Origin: TPA_inf: Saccharomyces
Lineage: Eukaryota
Direction: 5' to 3'
NCBI GenBank assembly: GCA_000146045.2
Contig: BK006938.2
Location: 864,001-928,000 of the forward strand
Length of the DNA: 64,000 bases
A model generated the notes under the pieces. It searched no databases, was not told the origin of the DNA, and saw only the letters and a list, made by a program, of their open reading frames with translations. Shown here piece after piece: positions 1,012-63,451 of this stretch (position 1 is the first letter of the stretch; every line of letters begins with the position of its first letter). The translations under genes and the position numbers were made by a program.

Positions 1012-3522
1012 TTATTTTTTTTTCATTGCTCTTCTTTTGGCCTCTTTTGTTTTTTTCTTGATTTCCTCCAGTTTCATCTGTTTTTTCTTTGGATCAGATA
1101 CAAAATCTGGTTTGAACGCGTCATAGTGACAGTCCAATTTCAACCTTTCACAGTTGAAACAGTGCGGTCTTTCCTCGGTACACTTCTTTTTCCTTAATCT
1201 ACAAATCCAGCAACCAGTACGGGACCTTGTACCTTGAGACGTTGAGGAAGTAGCATTATTCGATTCTTGAGAATTGTTTGCTTTTGATTTCGAAGTAGTA
1301 TTATTTGGTCTTTTCTTTGATGACTGTTTCGCCTTTGATTTTGCCTTAGGCTTGACATTTTTTCCTTTAGATTTAGCGAAATCCGGCGAAGTAGCGTTAG
1401 GATAATCAGCGGTATATGCCAAGCCAGAAGAAGCCTTCAAAGATGGAGACGATGGAGCTGACGAAGTTGAGGATTCGCCAAGAGAATTATAATCGCTATT
1501 GGTTTGGCTTGCTACTCTTGCGTTTCCAACTGACCTTCTCGATTTTTTCAATGGTGGAACTTCCAGTTGCTGTTGTTGTTCTGGAGCAGAAAGGCGTCTG
1601 TCTATTCGCTTACCATTCTTATTCCAAGTAACTTGCCTTGTCCTTGACTCAAAAGTGGGATCTAAAACCTTTTTAGAGTTTAGATTTAAATGGTAAGGAG
1701 ACAAGTCTTGATTTTGGTCCTGGTCTTCATCAAAAACAGCTGTAGAATTGTTGCTTTCGAAAATGGGTTGTTGTTCGGAATTATGGATACGTAACAGAAT
1801 TGGTCTTAAGACACCCTTTGATGGAAAAGATGACGAATGAGGCCTACTAGCCGGCACACCGAGCGCATTTGTGTTATTCATGTCATTGACATTGGAAATG
1901 GGTTTATCATGAGTTCTATATGGGGATGATCTCATGTTTGATAGCACTGCTGCTGCTGTACCCAAGTCGTCGTCTAGTTTGGTAGATGAAGATGCAGAAT
2001 TCGGACCGAGCAATAATCTTGATCTCAATCCATCCAATTTAGAATTGATGTATTTCGGTGGAGGTGGTGGGATGTATTGTTCATTTGTATGGAAGGGACT
2101 ATTTCTATTGTTACGATTCGGCAAATCGCCGTAAAAAAACCCAGTAGAAGGTCTTGACGAAGTGGCAAACGGGTCTTCACCGCGATTGATATTGTTCCGT
2201 TGAGGGTTGTTGTTGTTTGTGCTTGTAAACGAAGATGCGGAAGTTGGAGGTTGAGAAGGTATTTGGTTGAACCTAAAATGCTGGAAATTGTTTCTGCTGG
2301 TAATGGAAGAGCTGGTGTTCGCATGTCGAGAGTTTGTAGGCGTATCCGTGTTTGAACTAGCATTGTTGGAGGATGATTCATTCAAAGAATAAGCCTCATC
2401 TCTGTATTTCGAATTTAGCCAGAACGATATGTTGATTTTTGATTCGTTCTCGTCCAGTTTTACATTTGGGTCTGTTATCTCTCTATCCTTGTTGAAATAG
2501 AAGTTCCTGGGCGCCACGCCCACGGCACATTGGTCATCATGCACATTATGCTGGACCTGAGAGTCGTTAGATGGACTGCCGCCGCGCTTAGTTCCGCCGC
2601 GCAAATACCCGCCAATCTCATTGTTATTAGAGGATTCTCTCGAATCTGAGCTTTGTATCGAATTATTGTCGTTGTTGTTGGTACTGTTGTTTCTGCTCAG
2701 TATCGACATAGGCGAATTGGTAGTCTTACCGTTGTTCTTGTTGGCGCTGGTAATGATGAGCGGCAAATCCGATCCTGTGCGGGAACGGATGCCCGAGCCC
2801 GTGCCCGCGCCCGAGCCTGCTGCGGTGGTACCGGGGGAAGAAACCGCTGGAGCTTGTGGTGGCGGCAAATGTATTTTTTTTTTGGCGCCGGCGACGATAG
2901 TAGTAGTGGCAGTGTTACTATTAGTGGAGGTGGAGGAGTAAGGGAAAACATCCTCGTTGGTTGCAGTATACTGCGGCTGAATAGCACCGGAAATTTGTGG
3001 GTCTGTAGCCTGTGCGACATGGCCATTGCACAATGACTTAGGATCCGAAGGTGTATTGGAAGGCGCGAGTGGGCTGGCGGCAGCATGCACAGCGTTATCG
3101 CTGTCACGGCGATCTTGAAGTGTAGTATTGGTCGTAGTAGTAGTATCGTTTTCCTTAGGATCGTCTTTGATATCTCCGCCACTTTGGACTTTCAAACTCG
3201 GCGAACCAGACGGAGTATGCACGGGAGTGTTGTTGGGCGCACATGTCGATTTCATAATAGAAAGCAAAGGGTTTTCATCGTAGGTTGTCTTGAGAGATTC
3301 GATGCTAGCACTGGAAATTGTAGGATGGCGGGAGTTAGCTCCATCACTAACTTCATCTTCTGCATGTTTTTTGCCGTCTTGGCTGCTATTCATCAGCGTG
3401 GCACGAGATGTTTTATTGTGCAAATAGTGATGATTGTTGGCGGTTGTTTCCATCGAAAGCAGAGAGGCAGCCGCATTAGATTCGTCCATGTGTTTGCTTT
3501 GAGAGCGCGCCTTGTCTAGCAT
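1012..3522 (-). CDS. UME6: Ume6, Zn2Cys6 transcriptional regulator of early meiotic genes, 836 aa
   Basis: 836-aa ORF with an ATG start. C-terminal Zn2Cys6 cluster CWICRLRKKKCTEERPHCFNCERLKLDC. S/T/N-rich N-terminal regions. N-terminus MLDKARSQSKHMDESNAAAS matches UME6. Confidence 0.93.
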   Translation of the reverse strand: MLDKARSQSKHMDESNAAASLLSMETTANNHHYLHNKTSRATLMNSSQDGKKHAEDEVSDGANSRHPTISSASIESLKTTYDENPLLSIMKSTCAPNNTPVHTPSGSPSLKVQSGGDIKDDPKENDTTTTTNTTLQDRRDSDNAVHAAASPLAPSNTPSDPKSLCNGHVAQATDPQISGAIQPQYTATNEDVFPYSSTSTNSNTATTTIVAGAKKKIHLPPPQAPAVSSPGTTAAGSGAGTGSGIRSRTGSDLPLIITSANKNNGKTTNSPMSILSRNNSTNNNDNNSIQSSDSRESSNNNEIGGYLRGGTKRGGSPSNDSQVQHNVHDDQCAVGVAPRNFYFNKDREITDPNVKLDENESKINISFWLNSKYRDEAYSLNESSSNNASSNTDTPTNSRHANTSSSITSRNNFQHFRFNQIPSQPPTSASSFTSTNNNNPQRNNINRGEDPFATSSRPSTGFFYGDLPNRNNRNSPFHTNEQYIPPPPPKYINSKLDGLRSRLLLGPNSASSSTKLDDDLGTAAAVLSNMRSSPYRTHDKPISNVNDMNNTNALGVPASRPHSSSFPSKGVLRPILLRIHNSEQQPIFESNNSTAVFDEDQDQNQDLSPYHLNLNSKKVLDPTFESRTRQVTWNKNGKRIDRRLSAPEQQQQLEVPPLKKSRRSVGNARVASQTNSDYNSLGESSTSSAPSSPSLKASSGLAYTADYPNATSPDFAKSKGKNVKPKAKSKAKQSSKKRPNNTTSKSKANNSQESNNATSSTSQGTRSRTGCWICRLRKKKCTEERPHCFNCERLKLDCHYDAFKPDFVSDPKKKQMKLEEIKKKTKEAKRRAMKKK

Positions 3523-4223
3523 CGTGAGTTAAGGTCCATGCAAATGGTTTGAGTGCGGTAGTGTCCTAGTTCCTGTGCGCTGTGCGAAGGTGGGCGCTTC
3601 TTACGATCACTGGTCTCTTGTCCTTGTCCTCTATGTTCTTTTCATTTTTCTTTTTGACGGCGGCAGTTTCCGCCTGGCATTGGTGAAAAGGCGCCTTGAA
3701 GCACGGCGGACGTGTCACCCGGACCGAAACAGAAGAGAAGTAGCGCAGTCTTGGCAATTATAGGATGCCCGAAATCCAACGTGCATTCTATTCTCGTGAT
3801 TATTCTCGTGATTTCGTGTGCAACCAATGGACTTTAAAAACTGCGCTCTACTACTTGTAGCAATGCATGTTTTGGGCAAGTGGGGTTGAGTGGAGTGTCA
3901 CCTCAGACGACGTGTCGCTTTTGTATATCCGTTTTTACGGACATAAGAACGTGCCGCCCATTCTGGGAAAACAAAACACAGGTTAAAAAAAAAAAGAAAG
4001 GAATGGATGGGGAATGGGACAGAGAGGAAAGATAGAGGTGGAAATAACAAAAGCGTGACAACAAAGAAGCAAATACGGAGGGACAAGCAAAGAAAAAACA
4101 AGGACAGAAACAAAAAATAGGAACAAGAAGTAGCACATTCATAAGCAAGAGAGTACGAAACCTGTTTACACCCCCCGAGACAGTTGCCCTATATCGCTTT
4201 TCCCTATCAATAGTTTCTAACTC

Positions 4224-6563
4224 ATGTCAGTCTTGCGATCACAACCTCCTTCAGTTGTACCGCTACATCTGACAACATCCACCAGTCGCAAAACAGAACA
4301 GGAACCATCGCTATTGCACTCTGCAATAATTGAGCGACATCAAGACCGTTCGGTGCCGAATTCGAATTCGAATCCGGATTCGAACCATCGAATAAAAAAG
4401 GATCGCAATAATCACACTAGCTACCATTCTTCATCGAATTCGGAGTCAAACATGGAAAGTCCTCGCTTGTCAGATGGTGAGTCTTCCACTCCGACCTCTA
4501 TTGAAGAGTTAAACCCAACAATAAATAATTCGAGGCTGGTGAAGAGAAACTACTCAATATCAATTGATCCTTTGCATGACAACAGCAATAATAATACGGA
4601 TGATGATCATCCAAACACCATAACTTCTCCCCGACCAAATAGCACTAGTAACAAGGAAATGCAGAAATATAGTTTTCCCGAAGGTAAGGAGTCGAAGAAA
4701 ATAACAACACCCTCGTTAAACTCGAATAATTGTTTGGATTTGGACAATTCCAGTCTTGTTCACACAGATTCGTATATACAAGACTTAAATGACGATCATA
4801 TTTTACTAAACAAGCGCGTTTCGAGGCGATCTTCCAGAATATCGGCAGTAACAGCAACTTCCACGACAATTAAGCAAAGAAGAAATACTCAGGATTCAAA
4901 CCTGCCCAATATTCCCTTTCACGCTTCCAAGCATTCTCAAATTCTACCTATGGATGATTCAGATGTAATAAAATTGGCCAATGGAGATACCAGCATGAAA
5001 CCAAATTCTGCTACTAAAATTAGTCACTCAATGACTTCTTTGCCTCTTCACCCACTTCCACAACCTTCTCAAAAGTCAAAGCAATATCATATGATATCCA
5101 AATCAACCACTTCTTTGCCGCCAGAGAATGACCACTACTATCAACACAGTCGTGGCACCAACCATAATCACGCTGCTAATGCTGCTGCTGTTAATAATAA
5201 TACTACTACTACTACCGCTGCTACGGGTCTGAAAAGATCAGAGTCTGCAACGGCAGAAATTAAGAAGATGAGACAATCTTTGCTGCATAAAAGAGAAATG
5301 AAAAGGAAAAGAAAAACATTTTTGGTGGATGACGATCGTGTTTTGATCGGTAATAAAGTCAGTGAAGGCCATGTCAACTTTATTATAGCTTATAACATGC
5401 TAACTGGTATTCGTGTCGCAGTGTCACGTTGTTCTGGCATAATGAAACCTTTAACTCCGGCAGACTTTAGATTTACGAAGAAGCTTGCCTTTGATTATCA
5501 CGGAAATGAATTGACCCCTTCTTCTCAGTATGCATTTAAGTTTAAGGACTACTGTCCCGAAGTCTTTAGGGAACTTCGTGCATTATTCGGCTTAGACCCT
5601 GCTGATTATTTGGTTTCGTTAACTTCCAAGTACATTTTGAGTGAGTTGAACTCGCCAGGTAAAAGTGGTTCATTTTTTTATTATTCGAGAGATTACAAAT
5701 ATATTATCAAGACCATACATCATTCTGAGCATATTCATCTGAGAAAGCACATACAAGAATACTATAACCATGTAAGAGACAATCCAAACACTTTGATTTG
5801 TCAATTTTATGGTTTGCATAGAGTGAAAATGCCTATATCGTTTCAAAATAAAATTAAGCATCGGAAAATTTACTTCCTAGTCATGAATAACTTATTTCCA
5901 CCACACTTAGACATTCACATTACTTATGATTTAAAAGGTTCCACATGGGGCCGTTTTACCAATTTGGATAAAGAAAGGTTGGCGAAAGATAGATCATATA
6001 GGCCTGTGATGAAAGATTTAAATTGGCTTGAAGAAGGTCAGAAAATTAAATTCGGTCCATTGAAGAAGAAGACTTTTTTGACACAGCTGAAAAAAGATGT
6101 GGAATTGCTTGCTAAATTGAATACAATGGACTATTCCTTGTTAATTGGCATTCATGACATCAATAAAGCTAAAGAAGACGACTTACAATTGGCGGATACG
6201 GCATCTATTGAGGAGCAACCACAGACTCAAGGACCCATAAGAACCGGTACCGGAACGGTAGTACGACATTTTTTTAGAGAGTTTGAAGGTGGAATTCGAG
6301 CATCTGATCAATTCAACAATGATGTGGATTTGATTTATTACGTGGGGATAATCGATTTCTTGACTAATTACTCAGTTATGAAGAAATTAGAAACGTTTTG
6401 GAGAAGTCTACGCCATGATACCAAGTTGGTGAGTGCCATACCTCCAAGAGACTACGCCAATAGGTTTTACGAATTCATAGAAGATTCTGTAGATCCTCTG
6501 CCCCAGAAAAAAACTCAATCGTCGTATAGAGACGACCCTAACCAGAAAAATTATAAAGACTGA
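4224..6563 (+). CDS. MSS4: Mss4, phosphatidylinositol-4-phosphate 5-kinase, 779 aa
   Basis: 779-aa ORF. C-terminal PIP kinase domain with motifs [31 protein letters not shown] and IIDFLTNY. Long Ser/Asn-rich N-terminus as in Mss4. Confidence 0.93.
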
Positions 6564-7073: not shown

Positions 7074-7301
7074 ATGAGCCAACAACAAGGTTACTACCAA
7101 CAAGGACCCCCACAGCAAGGTTATTATCAACAAGGTCCACCACAACAAGGTTATTATCAACAAGGTCCACCGCAACAGGGTTATCCTCAGCAGCAACCAG
7201 TCTATGTCCAACAAGGTCAACCAAAGGAGGAAAGCTGCTTGGACAGTTGTTTAAAATGTTTGTGTTGTTGTTTCTTATTAGAATTGGTATGCGATAACTG
7301 A
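7074..7301 (+). CDS. YDR210W-type small protein (75 aa): four [10 protein letters not shown] repeats followed by a Cys-rich C-terminal segment ([21 protein letters not shown]), as in the CYSTM tail-anchored family
   Basis: Repeat structure and cysteine-rich hydrophobic tail read directly from the translation. Position between MSS4 and the Ty cluster matches YDR210W. Confidence 0.75.
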
Positions 7302-7420
7302 TTCGTTTGTTCAAGAAGTGGTCAATATAAAAAACGAAATCACATAGCCTTTCATCTATGCTGCGAAAGACTGTATAATTACTTTTAAGCAAAAATGTAT
7401 ATAATATGATGGGATCGTTA

Positions 7421-7766
7421 CGTTGGAACAAGAATTGACCATCGTTCATCTGTTGTTGAAATAAAATTTGAAGTTATTCGTCGTACTAGTATCCTATCAC
7501 ATGCGGTGTAAGAAATCACATTGTATGAGAAGCAATTATCTAATTTAATGGACGCTGAAGTTCAAGAATTGGTAATGTGACAGGATAATTAATTAACAGC
7601 ATATAAAATAAAAGAATAATATTTTTATTATATAAAAATATCGATCACTCTTGTGGATTTCTAAATCCTCGAAGAGAACTTTTAATGCATTCTATATGCC
7701 TAATAATAAAGTCGCTATCGAAAATATAATATCTATGCTTATCTATATTGAGAAATGGATGAAATT
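7421..7766 (+). repeat. Diverged solo delta (Ty1/Ty2 LTR) remnant, + orientation
   Basis: Recognisable but diverged similarity to the delta sequence, for example ...actagtat..tatca.atgcggtgtaagaa...ggatttctaaatcctcgaagagaact.... The terminal TGTTGG is degenerated to cgttggaaca. Confidence 0.45.
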
Positions 7767-20360: not shown

Positions 20361-20493
20361 GCTCGTGTAGCTCAGTGGTTAGAGCTTCGTGCTTATAGCA
20401 ACATTCGGTTTCCGAAGTTTCTGTGCCAAAGACCTTTCAAACAGGCCTTTAAAAGCAACGCGACCGTCGTGGGTTCAAACCCCACCTCGAGCA
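20361..20493 (+). tRNA. tI(UAU): tRNA-Ile (anticodon UAU) with a 60-nt intron at 20398-20457; mature length 73 nt
   Basis: I folded it by hand. Acceptor gctcgtg/ctcgagc, D arm gctc-agtggtta-gagc, anticodon stem tcgtg/cgcga with loop c-t-TAT-a, intron immediately 3' of position 37, T arm gtggg-ttcaaac-cccac, discriminator A. The T9 run follows 7 nt downstream. Confidence 0.92.
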
Positions 20494-24911: not shown

Positions 24912-25750
24912 TTCTTTGCGTAATCCGAACGAGATTCTGTATCTGCATGTAAACTAATAAACCTATATAAAATTTAATTATATTTTTTTCAGCTAGTTCT
25001 ATTTTTGAATTTGATCGCTAACTCTGGGCAGTTGATAAGCGCTTCCCAGCTTTTCACGTGCGAGGTGGACTAATACGTAATAACGCGTACCTATTAGGAC
25101 TTCGTTGAGTTGTTTTTCTTGTCCAAATGCAGAAGCGGGTCCCTACAAACTATTGTGTTTGTTCGTAAACGAGCAGGAACCCTGTTAAAGGAAAAAAGCT
25201 TAACGCTAGCGTTACATTTTAGTAAGGCGGCAATAAAAAAGAATGCGGAGTGTATTCCATGAATTCAATTGCGCTTACTGCTAAGCCTGTTTCTAAACAT
25301 GATCCCCAGGGTGAATATCTCCCATAGTGGCTGTGTTATTCTGTCTAAATGTGGCAGCTAAATAAGGTTTTTTCCAAGCTATTTTTTTCTCTAAACGAGC
25401 GCACCTTAGCGGGATCGCGTCAAATTTTCGCCCAACGAATATTATTCTATTGTCTTCAGTGAATGTGCTTGTCGAAATCTATATATGCGCCGCCCTGGCA
25501 GGATCAGCAAATACAAGTTACTTGGAAAGTCGCGGCATAGAAAGTAGACACTTCTTTTGTCAAAGATTGATATTGCTTTCAGGGTGCGATAGTGCTGACT
25601 GTTCCTCTAAACAGCGATTTTTTACATACATTAACTTTTTGAAGTTGTAGGAACTATCTTTTCTCATTTATCCAACACTAAAACAAAATTGAGCTTTCCA
25701 GAAATAGTGAATCAAAAAAAGTTAAGTACAAATATTTACAGTTCAGCAGT

Positions 25751-28874: not shown

Positions 28875-29927
28875 ATGGTCGTGAATAACCCAAATAACTG
28901 GCACTGGGTCGATAAGAACTGCATCGGATGGGCCAAGGAGTATTTCAAACAGAAACTGGTTGGAGTGGAGGCCGGTTCGGTGAAGGATAAAAAGTATGCC
29001 AAAATCAAGTCTGTTTCGTCCATTGAAGGTGATTGTGAAGTTAATCAGCGTAAGGGGAAGGTTATATCTTTGTTTGATTTGAAAATCACGGTGTTAATAG
29101 AGGGACACGTGGACTCTAAGGACGGATCGGCATTGCCATTCGAGGGTAGCATTAACGTTCCTGAAGTTGCCTTCGATAGCGAGGCCTCAAGCTATCAATT
29201 TGACATATCTATATTTAAGGAGACTAGCGAATTGAGTGAAGCCAAGCCACTAATTAGATCCGAGTTATTGCCCAAGTTGAGACAAATTTTCCAACAATTT
29301 GGCAAGGATTTGCTGGCCACCCATGGTAATGACATTCAGGTGCCCGAATCTCAGGTGAAATCTAACTACACAAGAGGTAACCAAAAAAGTAGCTTTACCG
29401 AAATCAAGGACTCCGCTTCAAAGCCAAAAAAGAATGCACTTCCCTCTTCTACTTCAACTTCAGCACCAGTCTCCAGCACCAACAAAGTCCCCCAAAACGG
29501 AAGCGGCAATAGTACATCTATTTATTTAGAACCAACTTTTAATGTGCCTTCCTCCGAGCTCTACGAAACGTTCCTTGATAAGCAACGCATATTGGCCTGG
29601 ACCAGATCAGCACAATTTTTCAACAGCGGACCGAAGCTGGAGACCAAAGAAAAATTCGAGCTCTTTGGCGGCAACGTGATCAGCGAGTTGGTTTCATGCG
29701 AAAAGGACAAGAAACTTGTTTTCCACTGGAAACTCAAGGATTGGTCTGCCCCTTTCAACTCTACTATCGAAATGACTTTCCATGAGTCGCAAGAATTCCA
29801 TGAAACCAAATTACAGGTGAAGTGGACTGGCATACCCGTTGGCGAGGAAGATCGCGTGCGCGCTAATTTTGAAGAATACTACGTGCGTTCTATTAAATTG
29901 ACATTCGGCTTTGGTGCCGTATTATAA
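28875..29927 (+). CDS. AHA1: Aha1, activator of Hsp90 ATPase, 350 aa
   Basis: MVVNNPNNWHWVDKNCIGWAKEYF N-terminal Aha1 domain. 350 aa. Confidence 0.9.
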   Translation: MVVNNPNNWHWVDKNCIGWAKEYFKQKLVGVEAGSVKDKKYAKIKSVSSIEGDCEVNQRKGKVISLFDLKITVLIEGHVDSKDGSALPFEGSINVPEVAFDSEASSYQFDISIFKETSELSEAKPLIRSELLPKLRQIFQQFGKDLLATHGNDIQVPESQVKSNYTRGNQKSSFTEIKDSASKPKKNALPSSTSTSAPVSSTNKVPQNGSGNSTSIYLEPTFNVPSSELYETFLDKQRILAWTRSAQFFNSGPKLETKEKFELFGGNVISELVSCEKDKKLVFHWKLKDWSAPFNSTIEMTFHESQEFHETKLQVKWTGIPVGEEDRVRANFEEYYVRSIKLTFGFGAVL

Positions 29928-31034
29928 GATATATTGTTCTCATGTTTCAATAAAAGTATGCGTAAATATTTACATACCACTATTGGCATAGATAGAATGC
30001 AATACATCATGTAGTTCTGTACGGCATCCGCGCGGCTCCGATCGCCCGTCCTACTTTTGCGGCCCGGCGCCGACGGCCTCCCCGGAATTTACCAACGAAG
30101 AGGAAAATAAACTGGAGTTATAACGCCATTGGCGGGAAACTCCGAAACCATAGCGCCGTGGTCTTTCCCCGGTTTTTTGGCGCCGGGTGTGCTTGCGTTG
30201 TGTGAACGGCGCCCTGGCAGCTGAGGGGGAAGGGAAACGCCGGAGGCGACGGCAAGGATGACCATGGCGTCAAGGAACATGCGGAACATGCTAGAATGAT
30301 TGCCGAAAGGGCGGGCCCTAGTCAATGGCATCATGCGGGAACGTGCAGTAAAGCTCAATGTAACTTGATGCCTATCGGCGTTGTTCGAGCTAAGGACGAT
30401 GTGATAGACTGAGGAAGGGTGAACGTCGATAGTTAGCCGTTGTGAACTAAATAAAAGTGATATTTTTTCGTTGTTCTTTTCTTGGTTTGGCGGTGTTTTC
30501 ATTTGTTTTCATGTTTTACTTCGCCACAGGTTTTCAAAGAACAACGCCTTAAAAATAGGAAAACGTTTTCGCTACAGGTGTTGTTATTATTGTTGTTGTG
30601 CTGTTGTTTATTGTGCTATACTTGTGGTATTTATTCTGGACTTCCGATCGGAAATTTTCTTCCCTTGAAGACCTTTTGAAGACAACAGTTATATATCATT
30701 GATCTGAATTTCTCAGGCTATTTTCAAAATTCCATACCTCCTTATTCCAACATTTGCTCGACTACTATAGAAAAGCCTTATTCTTTTATCTTTGAAAGAA
30801 AGAAAAGGTGTCATAGCAAAAGTTTATTGTTACTCTGTTTTGATATACTCCCTCTTATTCGTTGGAAGTATAAGATTGATTTGCATAAATTAACCAATCA
30901 TTTTGCTACTTTCCCGGTTCTCCCTTTATTATAAACACTTCAGAAAAATATTCTGCTACTATTCCTTACTTTACTATAAGAATTTTGTTTTCCAAAAAAA
31001 AAAAATATAAAAAAAATAATCATACTCTATTACT

Positions 31035-34000
31035 ATGGCTAACGTAGAAAAACCAAACGATTGTTCAGGCTTTCCCGTTGTTGACTTGAATTCGTGCTTT
31101 TCTAACGGCTTCAATAATGAGAAACAAGAAATAGAAATGGAAACGGATGATTCACCGATTTTATTAATGTCATCATCAGCTTCCAGAGAAAACTCAAACA
31201 CTTTCTCTGTGATACAGAGGACGCCAGATGGAAAGATCATTACCACAAATAATAATATGAACTCCAAGATTAACAAGCAACTGGACAAGTTGCCCGAAAA
31301 TTTAAGGCTTAATGGTAGAACCCCCAGTGGGAAACTAAGGTCATTTGTTTGCGAGGTTTGTACGAGAGCGTTCGCAAGACAAGAGCACTTGAAAAGACAT
31401 TACAGATCGCATACAAATGAAAAACCTTATCCCTGTGGCCTCTGCAACAGATGCTTTACTAGGAGGGACTTACTGATCAGGCATGCTCAAAAAATCCATA
31501 GTGGTAATTTAGGGGAAACGATTTCCCATACCAAGAAAGTGTCGAGAACTATAACTAAAGCTCGGAAAAATTCTGCATCCTCAGTCAAGTTTCAAACTCC
31601 AACCTATGGTACTCCAGATAATGGTAATTTTTTGAATCGCACTACTGCCAATACAAGAAGAAAAGCAAGCCCTGAAGCTAATGTTAAACGTAAGTACTTG
31701 AAAAAACTGACGCGCAGGGCTTCATTTAGCGCACAATCAGCATCCAGCTATGCTTTGCCCGACCAATCTTCGCTAGAACAACATCCAAAGGATCGTGTTA
31801 AATTTTCTACGCCTGAATTAGTTCCACTTGACTTGAAGAATCCTGAACTTGACTCTTCGTTTGACCTGAATATGAATCTAGATTTAAACCTAAATCTAGA
31901 TTCCAATTTCAATATAGCATTAAACCGTTCTGATTCTTCTGGATCAACAATGAATTTGGATTATAAATTGCCCGAATCAGCAAATAACTACACATATTCT
32001 TCCGGCTCACCAACCCGCGCATATGTCGGCGCTAACACGAATTCTAAGAACGCTTCATTTAATGACGCAGACTTATTGTCGTCGTCGTACTGGATAAAAG
32101 CCTATAATGATCATTTGTTTTCAGTATCTGAAAGTGATGAAACTTCTCCAATGAACTCTGAATTAAACGACACTAAATTAATCGTCCCAGATTTTAAATC
32201 GACTATACATCATTTGAAGGATTCAAGGTCCTCCTCTTGGACTGTTGCTATAGATAATAATAGCAATAACAATAAGGTATCAGACAACCAACCTGATTTC
32301 GTCGATTTTCAAGAACTGCTGGATAATGATACTTTAGGTAATGATTTGTTAGAGACCACTGCCGTTTTAAAAGAATTTGAACTTTTACATGATGATAGCG
32401 TAAGTGCTACCGCCACGTCAAATGAGATTGACCTTTCCCATTTGAACCTATCAAACTCTCCAATTTCTCCTCATAAGTTAATTTATAAGAATAAAGAGGG
32501 GACCAATGACGATATGTTGATTTCTTTCGGACTCGATCATCCTTCCAATCGCGAAGATGATCTGGATAAGCTATGTAATATGACCAGAGATGTTCAAGCC
32601 ATATTCAGTCAATATTTGAAAGGAGAAGAGTCTAAACGATCCCTGGAAGACTTTTTATCAACGTCAAACAGGAAAGAAAAGCCAGATAGCGGCAACTATA
32701 CTTTTTATGGGTTAGATTGTTTAACGTTATCGAAAATATCAAGAGCTCTGCCGGCCTCCACTGTGAACAACAATCAGCCATCGCATTCCATAGAATCAAA
32801 GCTATTTAATGAACCAATGAGAAATATGTGCATTAAAGTGCTTAGATACTATGAAAAGTTCAGTCATGATAGTAGTGAGAGTGTCATGGACTCTAATCCA
32901 AACTTGCTGTCCAAAGAATTGTTAATGCCAGCTGTGAGTGAATTGAACGAATATTTAGATCTTTTCAAGAATAATTTCCTTCCCCATTTCCCTATTATTC
33001 ACCCAAGCTTGCTTGATTTGGATTTGGATAGCTTGCAACGATATACTAATGAGGATGGGTATGATGACGCTGAAAACGCGCAGTTGTTTGATCGATTAAG
33101 TCAAGGGACAGATAAAGAATATGATTACGAGCACTATCAAATCTTGTCCATTTCGAAAATCGTTTGTTTACCCTTATTTATGGCCACATTTGGTTCTTTG
33201 CATAAGTTCGGTTACAAATCTCAAACAATAGAATTGTATGAGATGAGTAGAAGAATTCTACATTCTTTTTTGGAGACTAAAAGAAGGTGTCGCAGTACAA
33301 CAGTAAATGACAGTTATCAGAACATTTGGTTGATGCAATCCCTAATATTGAGCTTCATGTTCGCTCTAGTTGCTGATTATTTGGAGAAAATTGACTCCTC
33401 TTTGATGAAAAGGCAATTGTCCGCATTATGTTCAACGATCAGATCAAACTGTTTACCGACAATTTCTGCAAATTCTGAGAAGAGTATCAATAATAACAAT
33501 GAACCTTTAACATTTGGTTCTCCTCTTCAATACATCATTTTTGAGTCAAAAATTAGATGCACCTTAATGGCTTATGATTTTTGTCAGTTCTTGAAATGTT
33601 TCTTCCATATTAAATTCGATTTGTCTATAAAGGAAAAAGATGTTGAAACCATTTATATTCCCGACAATGAGTCAAAATGGGCCAGTGAATCGATAATATG
33701 TAATGGGCATGTTGTGCAAAAGCAAAATTTTTATGATTTTAGAAACTTTTATTACAGTTTCACGTATGGACACTTACACTCAATACCAGAATTTTTAGGG
33801 TCATCTATGATTTATTATGAATACGATTTAAGAAAAGGAACCAAATCACATGTGTTTTTGGATCGAATCGATACGAAAAGGCTAGAGAGGAGTCTTGACA
33901 CTTCTTCCTATGGCAATGATAATATGGCAGCAACCAATAAAAATATTGCGATCTTAATTGATGACACCATAATTTTGAAAAATAATTTAATGTCAATGAG

Positions 34001-35006
34001 ATTCATCAAACAGATTGATCGCTCGTTTACTGAGAAGGTTAGAAAAGGACAAATAGCAAAGATATATGATTCCTTTTTGAACTCTGTGAGGTTGAATTTT
34101 TTGAAGAATTATTCAGTTGAAGTATTGTGTGAATTTTTAGTAGCGTTGAACTTTTCAATCCGTAATATTTCGTCTTTATACGTAGAAGAAGAAAGTGATT
34201 GCTCCCAAAGAATGAATTCTCCAGAGCTGCCAAGGATCCACCTGAATAATCAAGCGCTTTCTGTCTTCAATTTACAAGGCTATTACTATTGCTTCATCCT
34301 AATTATCAAATTTTTATTGGATTTTGAAGCAACTCCAAATTTTAAGTTACTGAGAATTTTTATTGAGTTGAGAAGCCTTGCGAATTCTATTTTACTTCCC
34401 ACACTTTCAAGATTGTATCCGCAAGAGTTTTCTGGATTTCCTGATGTTGTATTTACGCAACAATTTATAAATAAAGATAATGGTATGCTTGTCCCTGGTT
34501 TATCCGCAAATGAACACCATAATGGTGCAAGTGCAGCTGTTAAGACTAAGTTAGCCAAAAAGATCAATGTTGAAGGGCTTGCAATGTTTATTAATGAAAT
34601 CCTAGTTAACTCTTTTAACGATACCTCTTTTTTGAATATGGAGGATCCTATTCGAAATGAATTTTCCTTTGATAATGGGGACAGGGCAGTGACAGACTTG
34701 CCTCGTTCAGCACATTTCCTATCGGATACCGGCCTAGAAGGTATTAACTTCAGCGGCTTAAATGATTCGCATCAAACTGTTTCTACTTTGAATCTTTTAC
34801 GTTACGGGGAAAATCATTCATCAAAACATAAAAATGGTGGAAAGGGGCAAGGATTTGCCGAAAAGTACCAATTATCTCTGAAATATGTTACTATTGCCAA
34901 GTTATTTTTCACCAATGTTAAAGAAAACTACATTCATTGTCACATGTTAGATAAGATGGCAAGTGATTTCCACACTTTGGAAAATCATCTAAAGGGAAAC
35001 AGTTGA
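31035..35006 (+). CDS. ADR1: Adr1, C2H2 zinc-finger transcription factor for glucose-repressed genes, 1323 aa
   Basis: Two C2H2 fingers [23 protein letters not shown] and [24 protein letters not shown] near the N-terminus. 1323 aa. Confidence 0.93.
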
Positions 35007-62910: not shown

Positions 62911-63451
62911 CTTTATATTAACTGTTGAGCTGCTCGTTACGCACTGCTGTGGACTTCACTACAATGCTTTACCGAGCAGTGGAGTTTGATATAGTGGTGG
63001 TACCCCCGACGGTGCTATAATAAGCTTGCCTGCACGGCTTACCCTACCGCTCGGAAAGGCCGCCTTCGTCGCTCATTGGTCTGCGGCCGCGGGCGCTTTT
63101 TGGTCATTGTTCATATATGAAGAAAGAGCAGGAACGGAAATTTTTCATCTTGCCTTGCCCATTGTTCTGATCCATGCGTTGTTAGAAATACAACGTTTGC
63201 ATCATACCAAACTTCTCCATTCCGTCAGCTGATACTCTATTCGGTTGTGTGTTGCACCCTGCTCTGCTGTCTCTCAACCGTTCTTCCTTTACACGCCTTC
63301 CCTTCTCAGCTCGCGTTTCTTTTTTTTTTATCCCACTCTTTTCTTTTTTCTTTCCTATATATTGCCCATATAAGTTTGGTTGGAAGGAAAACTAATAGAG
63401 CTAGTTGTTGTCCCTCAATAATCATAACAGTACTTAGGTTTTTTTTTCAGT

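Follow-up and report, generated by a model that had tools for sequence, protein, structure and literature searches.

A conserved GC-rich island, overlain by the dubious reading frame YDR215C, is probably upstream regulatory DNA of ADR1

RESULTS

A GC-rich island lies between AHA1 and ADR1

The DNA considered here is a 64,000-nucleotide stretch of Saccharomyces (contig BK006938.2, positions 864,001 to 928,000 of the forward strand), called the window below; all positions count from its first letter. Within it, AHA1 (28875-29927, plus strand) is followed by ADR1, and shortly 3′ of the AHA1 stop at 29927 begins a GC-rich island that is overlain on the minus strand by the open reading frame (ORF) YDR215C. 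ADR1 encodes a zinc-finger activator of glucose-repressed genes, and we consider the island probably to be its upstream regulatory region, containing upstream activating and upstream repressing sequences (UAS/URS). The features discussed are collected in Table 1.

In 100-bp windows, the GC content is 53-65% across 30000-30400 and 28-45% on either side. Positions 30022-30321 (61.0% GC) and 30022-30421 (58.0% GC) give the highest 300-bp and 400-bp values of the window; with a mean of 37.9% at both lengths and standard deviations (SD) of 5.0% and 4.6%, respectively, each maximum is ~4.5 SD above the mean. The CpG count is likewise at its maximum here, 39 in the 400 bp from 30001 (window mean 11.7, SD 5.0), and the observed/expected ratio (o/e) of CpG is 1.19 in the island versus 0.82 in the window as a whole. 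With 400 bp, 57.6% GC and this o/e, the island falls within the formal definition of a CpG island (at least 200 bp, GC at least 50%, o/e at least 0.6), although the o/e threshold does not discriminate in DNA that already stands at 0.82 throughout. The initial annotation had placed a GC-rich, CpG-dense segment about 0.6 to 1 kb upstream of ADR1; both the segment and its distance, 615-1015 bp upstream of the ADR1 ATG, are borne out.

This is the largest noncoding GC-rich patch in the window, and it is not the sole one. Two further short noncoding patches both lie in divergent promoters: one at ~3551-3750 (54%, 200 bp), between an 836-aa ORF on the minus strand and a 779-aa ORF on the plus strand, and one at ~62996-63095 (65%, 100 bp), upstream of a 205-aa minus-strand ORF. 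Shorter GC-rich patches also occur in coding DNA, at 2711-3100 and from 63457 onward.

Table 1. Features of the AHA1-ADR1 interval and of the corresponding interval in two other yeasts (window positions unless a locus is named)
Feature	Position	Strand	Basis or remark
GC-rich island, probable ADR1 upstream regulatory region (UAS/URS)	30013-30420		57-61% GC; conservation
Mig1-type site, candidate, AAAAACCGGGG	30167-30177	-	Full WWWWNSYGGGG match; aligned in all six species
Second Mig1-type site, candidate, AAATTCCGGGG	30080-30090	-	Full motif in S. cerevisiae and S. mikatae
Inverted repeat with GGAG cores (TGGAGTT ... AACTCCG), candidate noncanonical Adr1 site	30113-30144		
Most conserved island block, GCGTTGTGTGAACGGCGCCCTGGCAGCTGAGGGGG	30196-30230	+	Includes GCCCTGGCAG and AGGGG (STRE-like)
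Conserved element, invariant 8-mer CTATCGGC	30372-30379	+	Same in six species
TATA-like element, TAAATAAAA	30448-30456	+	ATAAA core conserved in the six-species alignment
YDR215C, spurious noncoding ORF overlying the promoter	30089-30502	-	137 aa; comparative data
Putative long untranslated ADR1 leader (ATG-free zone)	30514-31034	+	521 nt without ATG
ADR1 coding sequence, gene proposed to be under control of the island	31035-35006	+	1323-aa ORF; C2H2 zinc fingers
HAD-like gene, preduplication yeasts	L008 8189-10018, L009 8130-9827	-	PF13344/PF13242

The island is conserved as nucleotide sequence

Orthologous loci were retrieved via the AHA1 orthologues, and ADR1 proved syntenic in every one of them. 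Six species form the close set (S. cerevisiae, S. mikatae, S. kudriavzevii, S. arboricola, S. uvarum, and S. eubayanus), and N. dairenensis, K. africana, T. delbrueckii, and Z. rouxii supply more distant loci. The island occupies the same position in all six Saccharomyces species, and its GC content there is 54-64%. In the six-species alignment, 36% of its columns are invariant, compared to 18% of the four-fold degenerate sites of AHA1, and its mean identity to S. cerevisiae is 0.69, compared to 0.46-0.62 at those sites. The island is more conserved than the four-fold sites of its neighbor and therefore, judged from this alignment, is under purifying selection as nucleotide sequence. Read in the same way, it is noncoding, vertically inherited DNA.

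Some of the island has changed in single lineages. A 9-mer, GGAACATGC, is tandemly duplicated at 30274-30291 in S. cerevisiae and in none of the other five species; S. uvarum has gained a run of ~25 A's (locus L005, ~7250-7275) and S. eubayanus an expansion of (GGCGAC)n (locus L006, ~7400-7430).

YDR215C is not conserved as a reading frame

In each of the five sister species, the segment orthologous to YDR215C contains 8-14 frameshifting indels (lengths not divisible by three) and 1-9 in-frame stops, and its ATG is retained in S. mikatae only. The frame is also polymorphic within S. cerevisiae, where frameshifted or truncated variants (P0145, P0146, and P0147) are found. A search of 5.8 billion proteins with YDR215C returned five clusters, all at 92% identity or more and labeled S. 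cerevisiae or unlabeled; no homologue outside S. cerevisiae was found among them, and no Pfam family matched the protein. GC contents at codon positions 1, 2, and 3 are 0.53, 0.46, and 0.53, without clear periodicity, in what is a short sequence. That YDR215C probably does not encode a protein has been stated in earlier literature, and on these comparisons the frame is open by chance and is not a gene. The alignment that the initial annotation proposed as a check thus comes down on the side of an island kept as nucleotide sequence and not as an ORF.

The initial annotation had also explained the ORF most simply by a scarcity of stop codons in GC-rich DNA. That stop-type trinucleotides are rarer in the island holds (0.068 versus 0.112), but the scarcity does not fully account for the length of the frame: in local shuffles that preserve composition, the longest ORF averages 60 aa, and 137 aa is reached in 0.5% of trials. 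We call YDR215C spurious because the comparative data, and not composition alone, show it to be so.

An ATG-free zone downstream of the island marks a putative ADR1 leader

There is no ATG in the 521 nt that precede the ADR1 start codon in S. cerevisiae, where 7.9 would be expected (P < 0.001). The corresponding zones in the other five species are likewise free of ATG and are 584-677 nt long (P < 0.001 for each); across the six species, with zones of 521-677 nt, 8-10 ATGs would be expected. The island itself, by contrast, contains many ATGs. Such a zone has the signature of a long untranslated leader, which would place the ADR1 transcription start at about 30514-30530. In agreement with this, the ADR1 leader is reportedly roughly 510 nt long, a figure that Blumberg and coworkers are said to have given in 1988. 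The ATG-free zone offers independent sequence evidence for an ADR1 leader of at least 520 nt that has been kept free of upstream ATGs.

Since the zone starts at 30514, 3′ of the island, the island would be upstream control DNA and not leader, at about -510 to -100 relative to the putative start, and the suggestion in the initial annotation of a leader element for ADR1 becomes unlikely. The TATA-like element TAAATAAAA lies some 60-80 bp 5′ of the point where the ATG-free zone starts, which would be its placement relative to the transcription start as well.

The leader (30531-31034) is itself conserved, with 29% invariant columns, a mean identity of 0.62, and an invariant block, AAAGAAAGAAAA, at 30795-30806. 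This conservation may reflect posttranscriptional control.

Conserved sequence elements within the island

For Mig1 we used the motif WWWWNSYGGGG, an AT-rich flank followed by the GC box SYGGGG; consensus sequences were taken from a review (PMC3897899, Table 2). There are five full matches in the 64-kb window, two of which lie in the island. The first of these, AAAAACCGGGG, is aligned in full in all six species. Conservation of the second, AAATTCCGGGG, is partial, with the GC-box core alone present also in S. uvarum and S. eubayanus. Elsewhere in the window, a further pair of full Mig1-type matches (6337-6347 and 6501-6511, 165 bp apart) lies near the 3′ end of the 779-aa ORF (4224-6563).

Between the two Mig1-type sites is an inverted repeat with GGAG cores, of which TGGAG is kept in six of six species and CTCCG in four of six. 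The repeat shows no covariation and hence gives no evidence for an RNA hairpin. An 11-mer, GAAACTCCGAA, recurs in the DNA upstream of ADR1 in T. delbrueckii, a match marginally above chance and suggestive only.

The longest invariant blocks of the island are the 10-mer GCCCTGGCAG (30211-30220) and the 8-mer CTATCGGC. The former is followed within the most conserved block by AGGGG at 30224-30228, aligned in five of six species. CGG/CCG triplets, which are the half-sites of zinc-cluster proteins, exceed the expectation from base composition in all six species (z = 1.7-3.0). A search for G-quadruplex motifs found none. As leads, about which we make no claim, GCCCTGGCAG might be compared with an Rfx1 X-box or a Rim101/PacC site, CATTCY at 30294-30299 with a Tec1 site, and GCGGCTC with a Stp1 site.

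The 10-mer GCCCTGGCAG recurs at 25492-25501, ~250 bp upstream of UPC2 and directly after a conserved TATATATG box. It is kept there in S. cerevisiae, S. arboricola (locus L004, 2144-2153), S. uvarum (L005, 2565-2574), and S. eubayanus (L006, 2551-2560), with a one-base variant in S. kudriavzevii and a two-base variant in S. mikatae. This second occurrence could be a shared factor site or a coincidence.

DISCUSSION

Among the functions that the initial annotation had offered for the island, that of a promoter element for ADR1 is favored by its position, its conservation, the Mig1 motif, and published data, and we consider it likely that the island serves as the ADR1 upstream regulatory region. 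The published data concern both repression and occupancy. On glucose, ADR1 mRNA is 2.7-fold up in a mig1 mutant and 5.0-fold up in a mig1 mig2 mutant in microarrays, and the same table flags ADR1 as “Mig1 site(s) in promoter: Y” (Westholm et al. 2008, Table S1). A 9.6-fold increase of ADR1 has been published for a reg1 mutant, and deletion of MIG1 in an industrial strain has also been reported to raise ADR1. In published chromatin immunoprecipitation experiments on microarrays (ChIP-chip), signal for Adr1, Oaf1, and Oaf3 was found on the intergenic probe iYDR214W; because YDR215C is dubious, the authors assigned this binding to the regulation of ADR1. We infer that it is these particular sites in the island that mediate the published mig1 and reg1 effects and the occupancy. 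The literature already covers glucose repression of ADR1, its dependence on Mig1, factor occupancy upstream of it, and the doubts about YDR215C, and nothing proposed here is new in kind.

We imagine the following course of events. While glucose is present, Mig1, with Mig2, would bind the two GC boxes (30167-30177 and 30080-30090) and repress ADR1 via Ssn6-Tup1; repression by Mig1 through Ssn6-Tup1 is an established general mechanism. When glucose is exhausted, Snf1 would inactivate Mig1, lifting the repression of ADR1. Activators could then act at the GGAG inverted repeat, at the block with GCCCTGGCAG and AGGGG, and at the many CGG triplets. These activators would probably include Adr1 itself, for which the repeat at 30113-30144 is the candidate binding site, and two zinc-cluster proteins that also have ChIP signal here, Oaf1 and Oaf3. 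For a dissection of the ADR1 promoter, the candidate conserved elements are the two Mig1 boxes, the GGAG inverted repeat, GCCCTGGCAG with AGGGG, CTATCGGC, and the TATA-like element.

The proposed arrangement resembles that of other regulator genes repressed by Mig1/Mig2 and controlled by Snf1, such as CAT8 and GAL4 (Westholm et al. 2008, Table S1). As in those promoters, the GC box SYGGGG, flanked by AT-rich DNA, is found a few hundred bp 5′ of the start, and ADR1, which encodes an activator for the use of alternative carbon sources, is up in mig1 and further up in mig1 mig2. It differs in that the candidate sites of ADR1 stand within an unusually long, continuous GC-rich stretch of ~400 bp, nonconserved bases included. 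A second likeness is to UAS1 of ADH2, an inverted TTGGRG pair: the island has an inverted repeat with GGAG cores, and there is Adr1 ChIP signal upstream of ADR1. Neither half-site of the island repeat fits TTGGRG, however, and the half-sites of UAS1 presumably have the opposite orientation.

Several observations weigh against reading the island as regulatory DNA of ADR1. No canonical Adr1 motif TTGGRG is present in 29990-30540, so that an inverted TTGGRG pair was not found there either, and the island has no Cat8 or Sip4 motif. Its one match to the oleate response element CGGN3TNAN9-12CCG, at 30282-30305, is found in S. cerevisiae only; it overlaps the S. cerevisiae-specific 9-bp duplication of GGAACATGC, which creates it. 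The probe iYDR214W, whose extent we estimated, reaches only 70-80 bp into the island and adjoins the 30113-30144 repeat. Beyond the genus, in N. dairenensis, K. africana, T. delbrueckii, and Z. rouxii, the sequence upstream of ADR1 shares words of 9 nt or longer with the island no more often than expected by chance. Recognizable motifs span just a small fraction of the 400 bp. Finally, variable ungapped columns of the island are 48-67% GC across the six species, with invariant columns at 55%, and lineage-specific inserted or otherwise indel-derived DNA is 47-62% GC. Variable and inserted bases are thus as GC rich as invariant ones, and motif content alone therefore fails to explain the composition.

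This last point leads to the alternative that survives best, namely that high GC is itself the maintained property of the island. We regard this as possible, though on the doubtful side, and it would complement a regulatory role for the island and not exclude it. The adjacent ADR1 leader, with 34-43% GC in its variable columns, does not share the composition of the island's variable and inserted DNA. Along the S. cerevisiae lineage, the island has gained and lost GC equally often (12 changes from AT to GC versus 12 from GC to AT); the count is small, but the balance suggests compositional equilibrium near 57% GC in a genome of 38% GC. In N. dairenensis, K. africana, Z. rouxii, and T. delbrueckii, GC likewise rises upstream of ADR1, more weakly and without detectable sequence similarity. 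The composition of the island itself seems to be maintained.

Possible causes are a turnover of GC-rich factor sites, selection for a nucleosome-favoring promoter, and stable GC-biased gene conversion. Intrinsic nucleosome occupancy is predicted from sequence mainly by GC content, and one can envision selection for a “covered” promoter, dependent on remodeling, that would keep ADR1 tightly off in glucose. The nucleosome-positioning feature suggested in the initial annotation may therefore contribute, given that nonconserved bases too are GC rich. Yeast recombination hotspots are located in promoters, and long-lived GC-biased gene conversion at such a hotspot would be another route. Turnover of factor sites such as the CGG triplets could yield the same pattern, which counts against invoking either. 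More specifically, and more tentatively still, the composition beyond the motifs may have been held at ~55-60% GC throughout the genus as a compositionally encoded promoter state or as a footprint of gene conversion. If true, the island would be a small yeast analogue of the CpG-island-like promoter class. Like vertebrate CpG-island promoters, it has the formal length, GC content, and o/e and lies at the promoter of a gene with a regulatory role. Yeast is not known to methylate CpG, which leaves no methylation-driven depletion for an island to escape, and the background o/e of the window is already 0.82; the two resemble each other in composition only.

A structured noncoding RNA, or a structured part of the ADR1 leader, is a very improbable account of the island. 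Its GC-rich DNA does fold into long helices (minimum free energy of -157.7 kcal/mol on the plus strand), and some RNA covers the region, as judged by the YDR215C-assigned reads that shift upon Rio1 depletion (see below). The folding energy, though, is no better than that of dinucleotide shuffles (z = -1.12 for the plus strand and +0.13 for the minus strand). In the consensus structure of the six species, the covariation term is penalizing (+0.43 kcal/mol), no more than 7 of the 84 pairs show any double change, and many are broken. No relevant Rfam family was found at the island when the whole window was searched at the gathering threshold; a search of the region at a permissive threshold gave E values of 0.27 or worse, with scores far under the gathering values. 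The ATG-free zone, too, begins 3′ of the island, in which ATGs are many. The structured element envisaged in the initial annotation thus finds no support in folding, covariation, or Rfam.

The same applies to the relic of foreign or ancient sequence that it had also proposed. Either horizontally acquired GC-rich DNA or the remains of a gene that stood between AHA1 and ADR1 before the genome duplication would have to be assumed, and we find this hard to credit. There is indeed a HAD-like gene (565-609 aa) between AHA1 and ADR1 in T. delbrueckii and Z. rouxii, on the minus strand like YDR215C, and it is missing from the interval in all postduplication species examined. Compared by tblastn with the AHA1-ADR1 interval of eight postduplication species, the two HAD-like proteins gave only noise, with a best E value of 0.2. 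A blastn search of plasmid and phage collections found nothing meaningful, the lone phage match being 38 bp long (E = 0.01), and, as noted, the protein search with YDR215C found no homologue beyond S. cerevisiae. Unlike a decaying relic, the island keeps its syntenic position and is under constraint in all six Saccharomyces species.

A genuine, recently born S. cerevisiae-specific gene at YDR215C is scarcely to be believed: the ORF exceeds the length predicted by local composition (P of about 0.005 for the region) and its deletion has published phenotypes, but the frame is disrupted in all five sister species and polymorphic in S. cerevisiae, the protein lacks homologues and domains, GC shows no clear periodicity over the codon positions of this short frame, and the phenotypes can be accounted for by the neighboring genes.

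With the island taken as probable ADR1 control DNA, the data attached to YDR215C appear in a different light. It has been published that S-adenosylmethionine (SAM) is 5-fold higher in a ydr215c deletion strain, that aha1 and ydr215c were both scored in one vacuole-fragmentation screen, and that RNA-Seq reads assigned to YDR215C changed 18-fold upon depletion of Rio1. The standard ydr215c deletion (30089-30502) takes out most of the DNA upstream of ADR1 together with the TATA-like element, and it begins just 160 bp past the AHA1 stop. Since it hits the upstream region of ADR1 and adjoins the end of AHA1, its phenotypes most likely reflect loss of the ADR1 promoter or a disturbance of the AHA1 3′ end. 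The SAM level, the vacuole fragmentation, and the large RNA-Seq changes tied to YDR215C need to be reread as effects on these two neighbors, and for annotation, YDR215C should not be handled as a gene. It belongs with the known class of dubious ORFs that overlap promoters: it is unconserved, lacks homologues, lies over the control region of a real gene, and has deletion phenotypes that plausibly come from its neighbors. We see no material difference from that class, of which it is a typical case.

Elsewhere in the window, a tRNA gene at 20361-20493 spans 133 bp, compared to the 71 positions of the model, and therefore probably contains an intron.

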